A DNA stretch of 25,892 bases from a virus (Duplodnaviria > Heunggongvirae > Uroviricota > Caudoviricetes). Positions 15,173 to 25,892 of this stretch are shown here, in pieces (position 1 is the first letter of the stretch; each line of letters starts with the position of its first letter). A program made the position numbers and the translations under genes. The notes under the pieces were generated by a model. The model was given only the letters and a program-made list of their open reading frames with translations, was not told the origin of the DNA and searched no databases. The stretch lies in IMG/VR virus record IMGVR_UViG_2734482557_000001. One strand, written 5' to 3'.

Positions 15173-15422
15173 NNNNNNNNNNNNNNNNNNNNNNNNNNNN
15201 NNNNNNNNNNNNNNNNNNNNNNNNNNNNNNNNNNNNNNNNNNNNNNNNNNNNNNNNNNNNNNNNNNNNNNNNNNNNNNNNNNNNNNNNNNNNNNNNNNNN
15301 NNNNNNNNNNNNNNNNNNNNNNNNNNNNNNNNNNNNNNNNNNNNNNNNNNNNNNNNNNNNNNNNNNNNNNNNNNNNNNNNNNNNNNNNNNNNNNNNNNNN
15401 NNNNNNNNNNNNNNNNNNNNNN
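15173..15422. other. assembly gap (250 N) spanning the L 3' end and K 5' end
   Basis: Run of N; flanks are in recognisable L and K frames. Confidence 0.99.
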
Positions 15423-16669: not shown

Positions 16670-19600
16670 ATGGGTAAAGGCAGCAGTAAGGGGCATACCC
16701 CGCGCGAAGCGAAGGACAACCTGAAGTCCACGCAGCTGCTGAGTGTGATCGATGCCATCAGCGAAGGGCCGGTTGAAGGTCCGGTGGATGGATTAAAAAG
16801 CGTGCTGCTGAACAGTACGCCGGTGCTGGACAATGAGGGGAATACCAACATCTCCGGCGTCACGGTGGTGTTCCGGGCAGGTGAGCAGGAGCAGTCACCG
16901 CCGGAGGGGTTTGAATCCTCCGGCTCCGAGACGGTGCTGGGTACGGAAGTGAAATATGACACGCCGATCACCCGGACCATCACGTCGGCAAACATCGACC
17001 GTCTGCGCTTTACCTTCGGTGTACAGGCACTGGTGGAAACCACCTCAAAGGGAGACAGGAATCCGTCGGAAGTCCGCCTGCTGGTTCAGATACAGCGTAA
17101 CGGTGGCTGGGTGACGGAAAAAGACATCACCATTAAGGGCAAAACCACCTCGCAGTATCTGGTCTCGGTGNNNNNNNNNNNNNNNNNNNNNNNNNNNNNN
17201 NNNNNNNNNNNNNNNNNNNNNNNNNNNNNNNNNNNNNNNNNNNNNNNNNNNNNNNNNNNNNNNNNNNNNNNNNNNNNNNNNNNNNNNNNNNNNNNNNNNN
17301 NNNNNNNNNNNNNNNNNNNNNNNNNNNNNNNNNNNNNNNNNNNNNNNNNNNNNNNNNNNNNNNNNNNNNNNNNNNNNNNNNNNNNNNNNNNNNNNNNNNN
17401 NNNNNNNNNNNNNGGGTGACGGAAAAAGACATCACCATTAAGGGCAAAACCACCTCGCAGTATCTGGCCTCGGTGGTGGTGGATAACCTGCCGCCGCGCC
17501 CGTTTAATATCCGGATGCGCAGAATGACGCCGGACAGCACCACAGACCAGCTGCAGAACAAAACGCTCTGGTCGTCATACACCGAAATCATCGATGTGAA
17601 ACAGTGCTACCCGAACACGGCACTGGTCGGCGTACAGGTGGATTCGGAGCAGTTCGGCAGCCAGCAGGTGAGCCGTAATTATCATCTTCGCGGGCGCATT
17701 CTGCAGGTGCCGTCGAACTATAATCCGCAGACGCGGCAATACAGCGGTATCTGGGACGGAACGTTAAAACCGGCATACAGCAACAACATGGCCTGGTGTC
17801 TGTGGGATATGCTGACCCATCCGCGCTATGGCATGGGGAAACGTCTTGGTGCGGCAGATGTGGATAAATGGGCGCTGTATGTCATCGGCCAGTACTGTGA
17901 CCAGNNNNNNNNNNNNNNNNNNNNNNNNNNNNNNNNNNNNNNNNNNNNNNNNNNNNNNNNNNNNNNNNNNNNNNNNNNNNNNNNNNNNNNNNNNNNNNNN
18001 NNNNNNNNNNNNNNNNNNNNNNNNNNNNNNNNNNNNNNNNNNNNNNNNNNNNNNNNNNNNNNNNNNNNNNNNNNNNNNNNNNNNNNNNNNNNNNNNNNNN
18101 NNNNNNNNNNNNNNNNNNNNNNNNNNNNNNNNNNNNNNNNNNNNNNNNNNNNNNNNNNNNNNNNNNNNNNNNNNNNNNNNNNNNNNNNNNNNNNNNNNNN
18201 NNNNNNACTGGATTGACCCGGATAACGGCTGGGAGACGGCGACAGAGCTTGTGGAGGATACGCAGGCCATTGTCCGTTACGGTCGTAACGTCACGAAGAT
18301 GGATGCCTTTGGCTGTACCAGCCGGGGGCAGGCACACCGCGCCGGGCTGTGGCTGATTAAAACGGAACTGCTGGAGACGCAGACCGTGGATTTCAGCGTG
18401 GGTGCTGAAGGGCTTCGTCATGTACCGGGCGATGTCATTGAAATCTGCGATGATGACTATGCCGGTATCCGCACCGGCGGGCGCGTGCTGGCGGTGAACA
18501 GCCAGACCCGGACGCTGACGCTCGACCGTGAAATCACGCTGCCATCCTCCGGCACCACGCTGATAAGCCTGGTTGACGGGCAGGGGAATCCGGTCAGCGT
18601 GGAGGTCCAGTCCGTCACCGACGGCGTGAAGGTAAAAGTGAGCCGTGTTCCTGACGGTGTTGCTGAATACAGCGTGTGGGGGCTGAAGCTGCCGACGCTG
18701 CACCAGCGATTGTTCCGCTGCGTGNNNNNNNNNNNNNNNNNNNNNNNNNNNNNNNNNNNNNNNNNNNNNNNNNNNNNNNNNNNNNNNNNNNNNNNNNNNN
18801 NNNNNNNNNNNNNNNNNNNNNNNNNNNNNNNNNNNNNNNNNNNNNNNNNNNNNNNNNNNNNNNNNNNNNNNNNNNNNNNNNNNNNNNNNNNNNNNNNNNN
18901 NNNNNNNNNNNNNNNNNNNNNNNNNNNNNNNNNNNNNNNNNNNNNNNNNNNNNNNNNNNNNNNNNNNNNNNNNNNNNNNNNNNNNNNNNNNNNNNNNNNN
19001 NNNNNNNNNNNNNNNNNNNNNNNNNNNNNNGCTGACAGTCCGGGCAGTAAATGCGTGGGGGCAGCAGGGCGATCCGGCGTCGGTATCGTTCCGGATTGCC
19101 GCACCGGCAGCGCTGTCGCGGATTGAGCTGACGCCGGGCTATTTTCAGATAACCGCCACGCCGCATCTTGCGGTTTATGATCCGACGGTACAGTTTGAGT
19201 TCTGGTTCTCGGAAAAGCGGATTGCGGATATCAGGCAGGTTGAAACCACAGCACGCTATCTTGGCACGGCGCTGTACTGGATAGCCGCCAGTATCAATAT
19301 CAAACCGGGCCATGATTATTACTTTTATATCCGCAGTGTGAACACCGTTGGCAAATCGGCATTCGTGGAGGCTGTTGGTCAGCCGAGTGATGATGCATCC
19401 GGTTATCTGGATTTTTTCAAAGGCGAGATAGGGAAAACCCATCTGGCTCAGGAGCTGTGGACGCAGATTGATAACGGTCAGCTTGCGCCTGACCTGGCTG
19501 AAATCAGGACGTCCATTACGGATGTCAGCAATGAAATCACGCAGACCGTCAATAAGAAACTGGAAGACCAGAGTGCGGCAATTCAGCAGATACAGAAGGT

Positions 19601-20532: not shown

Positions 20533-21339
20533 ATGCGTAAAGTTTGTGCAGCCATTTTGTCCGCAGCCATTTGCCTGGCCGTATCCGGTGCGCCTGCATG
20601 GGCGTCTGAACATCAGTCCACGCTGAGCGCGGGGTATCTTCATGCCCGGACCAACGTTCCCGGCAGTGATGATCTGAACGGGATTAACGTGAAATACCGT
20701 TATGAGTTTACGGATACGCTGGGGCTGGTGACGTCATTCAGCTATGCAGGAGACAAGAATCGCCAGCTGACCCGTTACAGCGATACCCGCTGGCATGAAG
20801 ATTCCGTTCGTAACCGCTGGTTCAGCGTAATGGCGGGGCCGTCTGTGCGCGTGAATGAATGGTTCAGCGCGTATGCGATGGCGGGTGTGGCTTACAGCCG
20901 TGTGTCGACTTTCTCCGGGGATTATCTCCGCGTAACTGACAACAAGGGGAAAACGCACGACGTGCTGACCGGAAGTGATGACGGTCGCCACAGCAACACG
21001 TCTCTGGCGTGGGGAGCTGGCGTGCAGTTTAACCCGACCGAATCCGTGGCCATTGATATTGCTTATGAAGGCNNNNNNNNNNNNNNNNNNNNNNNNNNNN
21101 NNNNNNNNNNNNNNNNNNNNNNNNNNNNNNNNNNNNNNNNNNNNNNNNNNNNNNNNNNNNNNNNNNNNNNNNNNNNNNNNNNNNNNNNNNNNNNNNNNNN
21201 NNNNNNNNNNNNNNNNNNNNNNNNNNNNNNNNNNNNNNNNNNNNNNNNNNNNNNNNNNNNNNNNNNNNNNNNNNNNNNNNNNNNNNNNNNNNNNNNNNNN
21301 NNNNNNNNNNNNNNNNNNNNNNTCGGTTATAAATTCTGA
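20533..21339 (+). CDS. lom: Lom outer-membrane protein (Ail/Lom/PagC family), interrupted by an N-run gap
   Basis: MRKVCAAILSAAICLAVSGAPAWASEHQSTLSAGYLHARTNVPGSDDLNGINVKYRYEFTDTLGLVTSFSYAGDKNRQ... matches lambda Lom including the signal peptide. After the gap the frame ends GYKF-stop as in Lom. GAGAGG Shine-Dalgarno upstream. Confidence 0.9.
   Translation: MRKVCAAILSAAICLAVSGAPAWASEHQSTLSAGYLHARTNVPGSDDLNGINVKYRYEFTDTLGLVTSFSYAGDKNRQLTRYSDTRWHEDSVRNRWFSVMAGPSVRVNEWFSAYAMAGVAYSRVSTFSGDYLRVTDNKGKTHDVLTGSDDGRHSNTSLAWGAGVQFNPTESVAIDIAYEGXXXXXXXXXXXXXXXXXXXXXXXXXXXXXXXXXXXXXXXXXXXXXXXXXXXXXXXXXXXXXXXXXXXXXXXXXXXXXXXXXXXXGYKF
21073..21322. other. assembly gap (250 N) in lom
   Basis: Run of N; a lambda-like Lom needs only about 45-60 nt here, so the N length is not the true length. 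Confidence 0.99.
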
Positions 21340-21403: not shown

Positions 21404-24400
21404 ATGGCAGTAAAGATTTCAGGTGTACTGAAAGACGGCACAGGAAAACCGGTACAGAACTGCACAATCCAGCTGAAAGCAAAACGTAACAGCACCACGG
21501 TGGTGGTGAACACGCTGGCCTCAGAAAATCCGGATGAAGCCGGGCGTTACAGCATGGACGTTGAGTACGGTCAGTACAGCGTTATTCTGTTGGTGGAAGG
21601 ATTCCCGCCGTCACATGCCGGGACCATCACCGTGTATGAAGATTCCCGACCCGGTACGCTGAATGATTTTCTCGGTGCCATGACGGAGGATGATGCCCGT
21701 CCGGAGGCACTGCGCCGTTTTGAGCTGATGGTGGAAGAGGTGGCGCGTAACGCGTCCGCGGTGGCACAGAACACGGCAGCCGCGAAGAAATCAGCCAGCG
21801 ATGCCAGCACATCAGCCCGTGAGGCGGCAACCCATGCGACTGATGCTGCAGATTCAGCACGTGCAGCCAGCACGTCAGCCGGACAGGCCGCTTCGTCGGC
21901 TCAGTCAGCGTCTTCCAGCGCAGGAACGGCATCAACAAAGGCCACTGAAGCCTCAAAAAGTGCTGCCGCTGCAGAGTCCTCAAAAAGCGCGGCGGCTACC
22001 AGTGCCGGTGCGGCGAAAACGTTAGAAACGAATGCGGCAGCGTCACAACAATCAGCAGCCACTTCTGCATCCACCGCGACCACGAAAGCGTCAGAAGCTG
22101 CCACCTCAGCCCGGGATGCGTCGGCTTCAAAAGAGGCGGCAAAATCATCAGAAACGAACGCATCATCAAGCGCCAGTAGCGCAGCTTCCTCGGCGACGGC
22201 GGCTGCAAATTCTGCGAAGGCGGCCAAAACGTCCGAGACGAACGCCAGGTCTTCTGAAACGGCAGCGGGACAGAGTGCCTCAGCTGCGGCAGGCTCAAAA
22301 ACNNNNNNNNNNNNNNNNNNNNNNNNNNNNNNNNNNNNNNNNNNNNNNNNNNNNNNNNNNNNNNNNNNNNNNNNNNNNNNNNNNNNNNNNNNNNNNNNNN
22401 NNNNNNNNNNNNNNNNNNNNNNNNNNNNNNNNNNNNNNNNNNNNNNNNNNNNNNNNNNNNNNNNNNNNNNNNNNNNNNNNNNNNNNNNNNNNNNNNNNNN
22501 NNNNNNNNNNNNNNNNNNNNNNNNNNNNNNNNNNNNNNNNNNNNNNNNNNNNGGCGTCATCGGCATCATCGGCGTCTGCTTCAAAAGATGAGGCGACCAG
22601 ACAGGCGTCAGCAGCGAAGGGCAGCGCCACGACGGCATCCACGAAGGCGACAGAGGCTGCTGGTAGTGCGACGGCAGCAGCTCAGAGCAAAAGTACGGCG
22701 GAATCTGCAGCAACGCGCGCTGAGACAGCGGCAAAACGGGCAGAGGATATTGCATCCGCCGTGGCGCTTGAGGATGCGAGCACGACGAAAAAGGGGATAG
22801 TACAGCTCAGTAGTGCGACTAACAGCACTTCCGAGTCACTGGCGGCAACACCAAAAGCCGTTAAGGCCGCGTATGACCTGGCTAACGGGAAATACACCGC
22901 ACAGGATGCAACGACAGCACAGAAAGGGATAATCCAGCTAAGCAGCGCGACCAACAGCACGTCTGAAACGCTGGCGGCAACGCCAAAGGCAGTAAAAGCA
23001 GCCAATGACAATGCTGAGAAACGTCTGCAGAAAGATCAGAACGGTGCGGATATCCCTGGCAAAGACACCTTTACGAAAAATATTGGTGCCTGCCGTGCCT
23101 TCGGTGGGTCAGTAAGCACAACAACAGGAAACTGGACGACTGCACAGTTTATCGAGTGGCTGGATTCTCAGGGAGCATTTAACCATCCATACTGGATGTG
23201 CAAGGGTTCCTGGTCTTATGGCAATAATAAAATCATTACTGATACTGGCTGCGGTAATATTCATCTCGCCGGAGCTGTCATTGAAGTAATGGGGATAAAG
23301 TCAGCGATGACGATCCGCATTACCACTCCGACCACATCCAGCGGTGGCGGAACAACCAACGCCCAGTTTACCTATATTAATCACGGAACAGATTATTCAC
23401 CTGGCTGGCGAAGGGACTATAACTCCAGAAATAAGCCAACGGCATCAGAGATCGGGGCGCTACCGTCAGGTGGAACAGCAGTATCATCAGTTAATCTGGC
23501 TTCAAAAGGTCGGGTAGCCGCGCTGACAGACAATACGCAGGGGGCAGCAGGTCTTGAGTTATACGAGGTGTATAACAACGGATATCCAACAGCGTATGGA
23601 AATATCATTCACCTGAAAGGGATGACAGCCGTTGGCGAAGGTGAGTTACTCATCGGCTGGAGTGGTACAAGCGGTGCTCATGCTCCGGCATTTATTCGTT
23701 CACGACGGGATACGACCGACGCAAACTGGTCGCCGTGGGCGCAGCTTTACACCTCGGCTCATCCTCCTGCAGAGTTTTATCCAGTCGGTGCACCAATCCC
23801 GTGGCCATCAGATACCGTTCCGTCTGGTTATGCCCTGATGCAGGGGCAGACTTTTGACAAATCTGCTTACCCGAAACTTGCAGCCGCTTATCCGTCAGGC
23901 GTGATCCCTGATATGCGTGGCTGGACGATTAAGGGCAAGCCCGCCAGTGGTCGTGCCGTATTGTCTCAGGAACAGGATGGCATTAAATCGCACACCCACA
24001 GCGCCAGCGCATCCAGTACGGATTTGGGGACGAAAACCACATCGTCGTTTGATTACGGCACTAAATCCACGAATAACACCGGGGCGCATACGCACAGTCT
24101 GAGCGGCTCTACAAGTTCAGCTGGGGCCCACCAACATAGTCAGACTGGGCCCAGAACGAATAGCGGGAGTCAACCTACTGGAATGTTTCCGGCAGGGAGT
24201 ACTCAAGTTAGCGGGACTAATCAGGTTGGTATCAGTGGCTCATTAACCAGTGGCACCTCCCAATGGGTAGGTAAATCATCTTCAGAAGGAAACCATACAC
24301 ACTCACTGTCCGGCACAGCAGCATCTGCGGGTGCACACGCGCATACTGTCGGTATTGGTGCTCATACGCACTCTGTTGCGATTGGTTCACATGGACACAC

Positions 24401-24479
24401 CATCACCGTTAACGCTGCTGGTAACGCGGAAAACACCGTCAAAAACATCGCATTTAACTATATTGTGAGGCTCGCATAA
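21404..24479 (+). CDS. stf: side tail fibre protein Stf (mosaic; interrupted by an N-run gap inside an Ala/Ser-rich repeat region)
   Basis: N-terminus [60 protein letters not shown]... matches lambda Stf. C-terminus ...[61 protein letters not shown] matches the lambda Stf tip. The frame is open on both sides of the gap; continuity across it cannot be verified. Confidence 0.88.
22303..22552. other. assembly gap (250 N) in the Ala/Ser-rich repeat region of stf
   Basis: Run of N inside low-complexity, GC-rich repetitive coding sequence. Confidence 0.99.
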
Positions 24480-25060
24480 TGGCATTCAGAATGAGTGAAC
24501 AAGCACGGACCATAAAAATTTATAACCTGCTGGCCGGAACTAATGAATTTATTGGTGAAGGTGACGCATATATTCCGCCTCATACAGGTCTGCCTGCAAA
24601 CAGTACCGATATTGCACCGCCAGATATTCCGGCTGGTTTCGTGGCTGTTTTCAACAGTGATGAGTCATCGTGGCATCTCGTTGAAGATCATCGGGGTAAA
24701 ACGGTTTATGACGTGGCTTCCGGCGACGCGTTATTTATTTCTGAACTCGGCTCATTACCGGAAAATGTCACCTGGTTATCCCCGGAAGGGGAGTTTCAGA
24801 AGTGGAACGGCACAGCCTGGGTGAAGGATACGGAAGCAGAAAAACTGTTCCGGATCCGGGAGGCGGAAGAAACAAAAAACAGCCTGATGCAGGTAGCCAG
24901 TGAGCATATAGCGCCGCTTCAGGATGCTGTGGATCTGGAGATCGCAACGGAGAAAGAAACCTTGTTGCTGGAAGCTTGGAAAAAGTATCGGGTGTTGCTG
25001 AACCGTGTTGATACATCAACTGCACCGGATATTGAATGGCCAGTAGCACCTATAGGGTAA
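24479..25060 (+). CDS. tfa: tail fibre assembly chaperone Tfa
   Basis: 193 aa [74 protein letters not shown]...; the ATG overlaps the stf stop by one nucleotide (TAATG). Confidence 0.95.
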
Positions 25061-25145
25061 ATTCGTAATGATTACCTAAATACGTTATTCTTTTGTTAAA
25101 AAAGTGATTTTGCTATAGGTAGGGAGTATGTTCTTGGATTAAGAA

Positions 25146-25176
25146 TAAAAAATCGCCATGAAAGAGCTTCATGGCG
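25146..25176 (-). terminator. strong intrinsic terminator for leftward (minus-strand) transcription
   Basis: Perfect 9-bp stem CGCCATGAA / TTCATGGCG with a 5-nt loop at 25154..25176; read on the minus strand it is followed by a T-run (plus-strand AAAAAA at 25146..25153). Confidence 0.65.
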
Positions 25177-25809
25177 AGTACATAAACGTACAAAATGTGA
25201 TGAAAGTAGAGTGGCGTAAGCCACTATATTAAGATATGACAATAGCGAAGAAAAGTAAATAACATTTTATGGACGTTTAATTGTTAATTATAAAAACTAG
25301 AGTGCCCGATATTGTTTATCTTGCTTTAAAATAATGTACTCAAACCAAATTTTTGAGCTAAAAGCTCAAATAATATAAATGCAATAATAATGTTTAATAA
25401 GACAATTAGCTTGCTTTGTATTTTCATTTCGGAATACTGTTAAGTAACTTTGATGACCCTAACAATAGATCGGAATTTTCTTAGAGTCAATGGTCACTGT
25501 TTTTGCTTGCAAAGCAAATGTTTTGGTGGTTATAAGTCGTCTTAATATAGTCACGCATGCAACTTGTTCCATGCGGAGATTAAAGATTGGAATATAACGC
25601 GAAGATGGAATTAAATTACATTTGCAATAATTAATTTATTATTACTCAATAATTACCGATATTATTATTGTAAATTAATCATTAGAATGCAAAAAGAAAT
25701 GTAACGGCAAAATAAGAGGACGATAGCTGAGAAAAAAGCGTGCTTTCCCAATCTGGGGCAAATCACGTCTGAATGACACCTGAAAACAGGTGGTAGCCTC
25801 AAGAAGGCT

Positions 25810-25892
25810 GGTGATGCTGCCAACTTACTGATTTAGTGTATGATGGTGTTTTTGAGGTGCTCCAGTGGCTTCTGTTTCTATCAGCTGTCCCT
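25810..25892 (+). mobile_element. IS1 left end (terminal inverted repeat GGTGATGCTGCCAACTTACTGAT...), truncated by the window edge
   Basis: The 83 nt from 25810 to the window end match the IS1 left terminus as I recall it, including the start of insA. Confidence 0.85.
25864..25892 (+). CDS. insA: IS1 InsA, 5' fragment (GTG start; M-A-S-V-S-I-S-C-P...), continues beyond the window
   Basis: GTG GCT TCT GTT TCT ATC AGC TGT CCC at the expected offset from the IS1 inverted repeat. Confidence 0.7.

Follow-up and report, generated by a model that had tools for sequence, protein, structure and literature searches.

What does a tailed phage keep in a spacer that is very rich in AT and appears to encode nothing? 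The question is raised by positions 25061–25809 of a 25,892-nucleotide stretch of viral DNA (IMG/VR record IMGVR_UViG_2734482557_000001), the whole of which we call the window. This islet lies directly 3′ of tfa, the tail-fibre assembly gene, and the inverted repeat of an IS1 element begins at 25810. We think it likely that the islet is a surviving part of the b region of a lambdoid prophage that has been truncated by IS1 and consists of three modules, of which module A carries a small moron encoding a peptide like the Escherichia coli membrane peptide YncL, while module C is a fossil of a phage attachment site (attP). Most of this is ordinary phage mosaicism and archaeology. The modestly novel element is ORF33, a previously unannotated open reading frame (ORF) of 33 codons, which by its sequence appears to be a prophage-borne paralogue of YncL.

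The GC fraction of the islet is 0.315 (31.5%), compared with 0.48 for tfa, a mean of 0.55 for the rest of the window and 0.37 for the next-lowest window of 749 bp. No ORF of 60 residues or more is present in the islet, the longest having 52. The preliminary description of this DNA had reported just such an AT-rich, ORF-poor islet ending exactly at an IS1 end, and the observation is confirmed. Three of the four hairpins that it listed are real, at 25210–25225, 25352–25370 and 25502–25518, with stems of 6–9, 8 and 7 bp, respectively; the fourth, placed at 25565–25586, was off by about 10 nt, its true arms being 25554–25563 and 25566–25575. The strongest hairpin in the islet, a perfect 10-bp stem at 25153–25177, was not on that list. 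When the whole islet was folded and compared with dinucleotide shuffles, none of 20 shuffles was as good, with z = −4.95 for the minus strand and −3.30 for the plus strand.

By megablast, parts of the islet were found in 1343 of 5426 complete E. coli genomes, in every case on the chromosome, and the whole islet was found in the phages mEp332, PhiR70_1 and ev099. The proposal that the islet occupies the place where lambdoid prophages have their b region or cargo was borne out, whereas the idea that the DNA normally found there is absent or replaced was not: the islet is normal, widely shared DNA at this position, in these genomes and the three sequenced phages. The matches fall into three classes, namely the full-length islet (280 genomes), positions 25061–25638 at ≈96% identity, and positions 25725–25809 only (many genomes, in other contexts). 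The islet is a mosaic of modules that are each independently distributed:

25061–25638: module A, a 578-bp AT-rich cassette (GC 0.30) that travels with this tfa allele
25639–25724: module B, an 86-bp AT-rich palindromic linker (GC 0.24, 24%), present in the relatives with the whole islet and absent from the second and third classes of match
25725–25809: module C (GC 0.48), the distal 85 bp of a P arm of ≈195 bp, from a fossil serU-type attP, with three minus-strand hairpins

The relatives referred to below include mEp332 (L001), ev099 (L002), TUM9757 (L003), 20Ec-P-124 (L004), O26 RM8426 (L006), an ST131 strain (L009) and an IMG/VR contig (L041). Among the genomes listed, the RefSeq records of E. 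coli carry no annotation under the islet. The preliminary description had allowed that the islet might prove to be a non-coding spacer common to many prophages, to be checked by BLASTN. It does match an unannotated spacer of many prophages, but that spacer contains a conserved coding unit.

This unit is the conserved core of module A, at about 25143–25490, and consists of a promoter-like site, the 33-codon ORF and an intrinsic terminator, all on the minus strand:

25462–25490, minus strand: predicted sigma-70-type promoter, with the −35 hexamer TTGACT (25490–25485), a 17-nt spacer and the −10 hexamer TATTGT (25467–25462), matching the consensus at 9 of 12 positions
25427–25326, minus strand: ORF33, 33 codons (MKIQSKLIVLLNIIIAFILFELLAQKFGLSTLF), a predicted YncL-like single-helix membrane peptide
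25144–25228, minus strand: conserved 3′ block, with stem-loop arms at 25207–25215 and 25220–25228, an A/U-rich linker, the terminator stem (25177–25153) and a U-tract (25152–25144)

ORF33 is intact, 102 nt long and free of insertions or deletions (indels) in the window and in all 32 other distinct versions, which were drawn from 52 loci. Module A has diverged lineages at 91% identity (L040, L052 and L063) and at 79% identity (L007 and L032). In the 79% lineage, ORF33 differs by 18 substitutions, distributed over codon positions 1, 2 and 3 as 7, 1 and 11, with no indel and no stop codon; seven codons are changed synonymously and five residues are replaced (V9I, I15F, F17L, E21K and S30Y). The flanking spacer contains 10 gap columns in the same comparison. 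When 18 random substitutions were simulated 20,000 times, the mean number of amino acid changes was 11.1, and the probability of finding no stop codon and at most five changes was 0.00025. The kept frame and the excess of synonymous and third-position changes are the pattern left by purifying selection. An earlier suggestion that the islet might encode a small protein thus appears to hold for ORF33. The other small ORFs of module A (25096–25242, 25113–25193, 25459–25572 and 25487–25558 on the minus strand; 25158–25232, 25416–25484, 25450–25545 and 25490–25597 on the plus strand) were rejected, being broken in variants or changing only non-synonymously, and ORF33 is the only one to pass the coding test.

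The peptide resembles YncL (E. coli b4598). The NCBIfam hidden Markov model (HMM) for YncL (NF000537, an equivalog model) matched residues 1–28 of ORF33 with E = 1.3e-5 and 25.0 bits, and the divergent allele with 23.5 bits. In BLASTP against K-12 YncL (MNVSSRTVVLINFFAAVGLFTLISMRFGWFI), the ungapped alignment over 28 residues had E = 2e-7 and 11 of 28 residues identical (39%, with 64% similar), the shared positions including S5, N12, A16, L19–F20, L22 and F27–G28. The ungapped BLOSUM62 score of this pair was 60–61, while 3000 composition-preserving shuffles gave 20 ± 4 with a maximum of 45, so that the full-length similarity goes beyond shared hydrophobic composition. The two peptides are also alike in size and design, with 33 residues in ORF33 and 31 in YncL, and a single hydrophobic helix with basic flanks; in ORF33, K2 and K6 precede the hydrophobic segment L7–L23, which is followed by K26. 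YncL is an inner-membrane protein induced by stress and in stationary phase, and cells that overproduce it have a depolarized membrane and a condensed nucleoid (PMC12542507). In Salmonella, yncL lies on a short sigma-S-dependent “coding sRNA” transcript that was first described as a small RNA (sRNA) (PMC5437024). ORF33 likewise sits on a short, predicted monocistronic unit with its own terminator. Unlike yncL, it is borne by prophages rather than being chromosomal, is not preceded by a Shine–Dalgarno sequence (AAGGTGG in yncL) and has a long conserved 3′ untranslated region (UTR), and there is no nucleotide similarity between the two loci.

ORF33 is almost never called by annotation pipelines. 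Among 1.84 billion representative proteins, an exhaustive phmmer search recovered nothing but the peptide itself and a frameshift variant, on one or two contigs each, and the peptide occurs three times among ≈15 billion predicted proteins. Pfam and PHROGs searches with ORF33 gave no meaningful match. A tblastn search of phages with ORF33 gave no match even in phages that carry it, presumably due to its short length and to low-complexity masking. In searches of genome contigs, a 22-mer of the terminator block had no matches, and a YncL/ORF33 profile had 512 pattern matches, none of which was confirmed. Searching IMG/VR with a degenerate codon pattern added four ORF33 loci, none of them more divergent. 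We found the peptide sequence in no paper. YnfT of the K-12 Qin prophage, tried as a candidate relative, is unrelated.

Conservation along module A follows the unit. Over 33 distinct versions (the window and the 32 others), the fraction of variable columns was as follows:

25061–25140, adjoining tfa: 0.71
25141–25230, terminator block: 0.12
25231–25325: 0.43
25326–25427, ORF33: 0.22
25428–25500, 5′ UTR and promoter: 0.33
25501–25638: 0.68

The 79% lineage retains the −35 hexamer, the 17-nt spacing and T1, A2 and T6 of the −10 hexamer, and similarity collapses immediately upstream of the −35 hexamer. No part of module A varies less than the 3′ block, which occurs in 827 genomes, always at 90% identity or more; module A with its ORF is found in 828 of the 5426 genomes, so that the terminator block and the ORF occur together. 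A terminator scan gave 11 pairs followed by TTTTTTATTC, the stem at 25177–25153 being followed by UUUUUUAUUC on the minus strand. The fold of the 111-nt terminator region had z = −5.8, and none of 200 shuffles was as good. The substitutions found in the 3′ block are mostly outside the stems, and one that is not, 25220 G>A, retains a G–U pair on the minus strand only. The hairpin at 25352–25370 was also considered as a terminator and was rejected, since it is internal to ORF33 and the 79% lineage does not preserve it.

Known phage morons (lom and bor of lambda; gp15 of HK97) are self-contained units of promoter, gene and terminator that lie between phage genes. The islet resembles them in its place at the end of the tail region, its atypical AT-rich composition, its own predicted promoter and strong terminator, and a distribution independent of the neighbouring modules. 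It is much smaller than the classical morons. The terminator is strong and conserved and the composition atypical; the promoter is only a conserved match to the consensus. In the interpretation that we favour, module A would be a small moron whose transcript starts at its own promoter and runs leftward, on the strand opposite to the tail genes, and is ended by the terminator before it enters tfa in antisense. By analogy with YncL, the peptide would insert into the inner membrane of the lysogen and modulate its membrane potential or stress state. During lytic growth, late rightward transcription through tfa would oppose the module A transcript. The mosaic build, the homologies, the coding signature of ORF33 and the terminator fold come directly from the sequence comparisons; we infer the transcription, translation and function of ORF33 from these features and from the resemblance to YncL.

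Several points weigh against this interpretation. The promoter matches only nine of the 12 consensus positions, and a scan for promoter-like sites found five, compared with 4.5 in shuffled sequences. No Shine–Dalgarno or AGGAGG-like motif is found upstream of the ORF33 start codon (...ACAGTATTCCGAA-ATG) in any lineage. With only three sequence lineages, most of the weight in the selection test falls on a single divergent comparison. The HMM score of 25 bits is below the curated NCBI cut-off of 35, and we therefore treat ORF33 as a homologue or paralogue of YncL, not as an equivalog. No homologue of ORF33 was recovered outside E. coli-type prophages. Finally, we infer the continuation of the window past IS1 from the 79 genomes with a 99.6%-identical junction that are described below.

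We considered the possibility that the functional product is an RNA, in which case the 3′ block (25228–25144, minus strand) would be an sRNA, made by processing of the 3′ UTR or from an internal promoter, a reading with which the peptide is compatible. Nowhere else is the islet as conserved as in this block, which also folds well, and a stem-loop followed by an A/U-rich linker and a terminator is the usual build of an Hfq-dependent sRNA; its substitutions, as noted, fall mostly in loops, with one that keeps pairing on the minus strand only, and the history of Salmonella yncL offers a precedent (PMC5437024). The block nevertheless matches no Rfam family, shows no compensatory double changes and has no identified target, and the candidate internal promoter (−35 TTAACA and −10 TGTTAT, at about 25282–25254) is our own reading of the sequence, and the 79% lineage, with 4 nt inserted in the spacer, does not conserve it. 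We regard an RNA product as possible but doubtful, and in the favoured interpretation, too, the conserved 3′ block may act as an RNA in its own right.

It is unlikely that the islet is only a non-coding spacer, an AT-rich leftover of recombination that is probably bound by H-NS, with ORF33 unexpressed and its conservation due to recent spread. Most copies are indeed at least 95% identical, the lack of a Shine–Dalgarno sequence and of RefSeq annotation among the genomes listed would fit, and so would the mere three instances of the peptide. Against this, the 79% lineage keeps the frame through 18 third-position-biased substitutions while its flanks collect indels, the homology to YncL lies far beyond compositional chance, and the conservation maps onto a promoter–ORF–terminator unit.

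The location of module A raises another alternative. Phages are known to link receptor-related immunity genes to tail genes: llp is linked to the receptor-binding gene of T5, and cor to tail genes of phi80 and N15. ORF33 might likewise be a superinfection-exclusion gene co-inherited with the tail-fibre cassette, given its tight link to one tfa allele, in two prophage backgrounds, and its antisense position directly after the fibre genes. We consider this improbable, since a 33-residue inner-membrane helix cannot mask the outer-membrane receptor of side tail fibres, and ORF33 has no sequence similarity to known exclusion proteins in Pfam or PHROGs. Least probable of all is a type I toxin–antitoxin system, with ORF33 as a toxin restrained by antisense RNA: the peptide is short and hydrophobic, overproduction of YncL lowers viability and depolarizes cells (PMC12542507), and there is a weak plus-strand promoter-like site at 25236–25265, but we found no conserved antisense promoter or terminator in module A, searches of Pfam, NCBIfam and Rfam turned up no known type I family, the hairpin within the ORF (25352–25370) is not conserved in the 79% lineage, and YncL is not classed as a toxin.

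The distribution of module A follows this tfa allele. In Qin-like prophages at ydfJ, it lies 3′ of a complete tfaQ at ≈96% identity, and it is absent from the Qin prophage of K-12. Directly past module A in the Qin-like prophages, we observed a leftover of ≈100 bp from the 3′ end of a second tfa, 76–89% identical to the upstream tfa:

L005 5580–5680: tfa 3′-end remnant past module A
L008 4580–4680: tfa 3′-end remnant past module A
L007 4546–4645: tfa 3′-end remnant past module A

Its position between a complete tfaQ and a tfa remnant indicates that module A travels with the tfa allele as a cassette, and the same remnant suggests that tfa and module A recombined in together ahead of an older tfa.

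At the other end of the islet, module C is, we conclude from sequence comparison, the P arm of a serU-specific attP, whose outer 85 bp are left in the window. The complete arrangement is found in L041, in the order tfa, whole islet, rest of module C, serU-like core, short arm and a leftward tyrosine-integrase gene, which corresponds to the vegetative order of b region, P arm, core, P′ arm and int. The sequence CTTGGAATW occurs five times in this 11.9-kb locus (0.4 expected), always in the att region; two copies, one of them inverted, belong to the P arm, and the other three form a tandem array in the P′ arm. In lambda, the arm sites are P1 and P2 on one side and P′1–3 on the other. L041 therefore shares with lambda the gene order, the 2 + 3 arm-type repeats and an int gene reading leftward into the P′ arm, but its core is the 3′ half of serU rather than the lambda core. 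Arm-type sites on both sides of a core, together with int, are thus seen in L041, whereas the window contains no arm-type site, core or int and holds a dead remnant, not an att site, its prophage apparently residing at att-lambda (bioA/ybhB side). IS1 inserted inside the first arm-type site (GGCT|TGGAATA).

The stump of module C contains a stem-loop on the minus strand (25769–25732) followed by U6, which in L041 lies ≈260–290 bp beyond the int stop codon. Lambda has tI/sib at the corresponding position beyond int, and the stem-loop may by analogy be tI-like, although its fold does not differ significantly from that of shuffled sequences (z = −1.4). Apart from such a possible terminator, we assign no current function to modules B and C, which we regard as structural leftovers.

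Module C is also found at the right ends of prophages in L006 and L009. In the ST131 strain (L009), module C and the serU segment form the right junction of a prophage at serU, adjoining zinT. At L006 3860–4270 and L009 3885–3956, which are the right ends of prophages at the Rac/ttcA site, module C and 12–14 nt of the serU core lie between two copies of a ttcA-like att core; one copy bears the annotation of a 168-bp “capsid protein”, which looks spurious. At L041 10357–10417, a compensatory A>G/T>C pair in the variable-arm stem (GGAGTAGGGGCAACTCTACC compared with GGAGTGGGGGCAACTCCACC) sets the phage-borne serU half apart from its chromosomal counterpart, so that a functional tRNA would be rebuilt upon integration. 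The prophage Sp1 of O157:H7 also carries this serU segment, beginning at the core, but the phage arm that precedes it is a different one.

The 83 bp that follow the islet are the left end of an IS1A-type element:

25810–25892, plus strand: IS1 left end, running off the window

Its left inverted repeat, GGTGATGCTGCCAACTTACTGAT, starts exactly at 25810. The same junction between islet and IS1 was found in 79 genomes at 99.6% identity, under an annotated IS1A transposase. In relatives without IS1 (L001, L002 and L003), tfa is followed by a 1505-bp spacer and then by a 744-bp gene of the AraC family, past which lie IS3-family fragments and the end of the prophage, adjoining ybhB/bioA (att-lambda). 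In L004, only 206 bp separate IS1 from the same gene. Alignment showed that 550 bp (L003 5750–6299) are missing next to IS1 in L004, and the sequences flanking its IS1, AAGAAGGCT and CTTATTGGC, contain no target-site duplication. One junction kept, 550 bp lost and no duplication point to an adjacent deletion mediated by IS1, an event that is known for a single IS1 with one original junction and no 9-bp target duplication; here, the event is reconstructed from relatives, and its right junction lies outside the window. We would expect the genome of the window to continue past IS1 with CTTATTGGCTG..., 206 bp in length, and patE.

The earlier suggestion that the islet is a remnant of a cargo locus cut off by IS1 agrees well with these genomes, in which the AraC-family cargo gene lies just past IS1. 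That the islet is chiefly a silenced promoter region of the cargo does not fit, as the 206 bp proximal to the cargo lie beyond IS1 and the intervening 550 bp have been deleted. The AraC-family protein is identical at 246 of 247 residues to ECs_0287 of strain Sakai, at the right end of prophage Sp1, and resembles YdeO and GadX. Z0321 is PatE, a putative regulator of CP-933H in O-island 8 (OI-8), which is an RpoS-dependent, prophage-encoded AraC-like activator of acid-resistance genes in enterohaemorrhagic E. coli (PMC2907692, PMC10877973). By position, Z0321 would be equivalent to ECs_0287 and the gene would be patE. The relatives of the window share with that locus the serU half and flank upstream and a partial ISEc48 downstream; in Sp1/CP-933H, patE is at thrW, unlike here, where the prophage is a lambda-att one, IS1 is 206 bp upstream and the gene is outside the window.

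The deleted 550 bp include the 3′ half of serU (tRNA-Ser(CGA)), from the anticodon stem to CCA, and 279 bp of the chromosome downstream of serU; the serU segment (L003 5860–6199) matches 5423 of the 5426 genomes at ≈97% under “tRNA-Ser” annotations. In the lineage of mEp332, ev099 and the window, the order of P arm, core and chromosomal flank (a fossil attR) implies that patE, along with the DNA around it, was picked up when a prophage excised aberrantly from serU. The attP arm of module C would once have targeted serU and acquired the patE cargo in this way; IS1 would then have hit the first arm-type integrase site and removed the next 550 bp, leaving it 206 bp upstream of patE in a prophage presumably at att-lambda. 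At L004 7161–8134, and likewise in 78 further genomes, the IS1 transposase gene points toward patE, which begins 206 bp beyond the element, and IS1 could alter patE expression by read-through or by loss of silencing.

The remaining features concern module B and the neighbouring genes:

25612–25683: AT-rich imperfect palindrome with TAAT/ATTA tracts, spanning the A/B junction (inverted repeats I1–I3, I7 and I9; fold z = −3.1)
25675–25842 (L002 4615–4782, minus strand): “hypothetical protein” of ev099, running across modules B and C and interrupted by IS1 in the window
24479–25060, plus strand: tfa, tail-fibre assembly gene, 193 residues (Pfam Caudo_TAP, E = 4.6e-44; annotated in relatives as tail fiber assembly protein)
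15173–15422, 17171–17413, 17905–18206, 18725–19030, 21073–21322 and 22303–22552: runs of N in the window

The palindrome, ≈70 bp of TAATTA and AATAAT repeats across the point where modules A and B meet, could point to a junction made by recombination or bind a nucleoid protein. The 52-residue ORF at 25665–25823 (minus strand), which matches the ev099 “hypothetical protein”, was rejected, as it spans modules B and C, which occur apart elsewhere, and is cut by IS1; the ev099 annotation is probably not a gene. An Rfam 15 scan of 24400–25892 (E ≤ 1) gave only the IS009 family (RF02111) and no match in the islet. That match is full-length (218 bits, E = 8e-55) and lies at 24822–25020 (plus strand), wholly within the tfa coding sequence; the family was probably built on a conserved tfa segment rather than on an independent RNA gene. 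The six runs of N, 243–306 bp each, lie within the tail and tail-fibre genes and lead to runs of X in translations (for example, in the stf ORF at 22032–24479) and to spurious low-GC windows in composition profiles.

An “empty” AT-rich spacer, left blank in the annotations of hundreds of genomes and of sequenced phages, thus holds a small gene with a clear signature of selection. The ORF33 unit adds a case to the very small morons that phage annotation systematically misses, and its peptide is kin to YncL, a membrane peptide linked to stress whose role is just beginning to be understood. A paralogue carried by phages gives fresh access to peptides of the YncL type. The fossil P arm, the serU half and its flank record, base by base, how patE became phage cargo, and the IS1 allele upstream of patE is widespread and could change patE expression, which is directly testable. 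More tentatively, a family of temperate E. coli phages, found as prophages in ≈15% of complete E. coli genomes, may carry a YncL paralogue as a lysogenic-conversion moron that tunes the membrane potential or stress tolerance of the lysogen or excludes incoming phage DNA, with an unusually conserved 3′ UTR doubling as a regulatory sRNA. If true, this would be a dual-function “coding sRNA” that phages disseminate along with a tail-fibre cassette.

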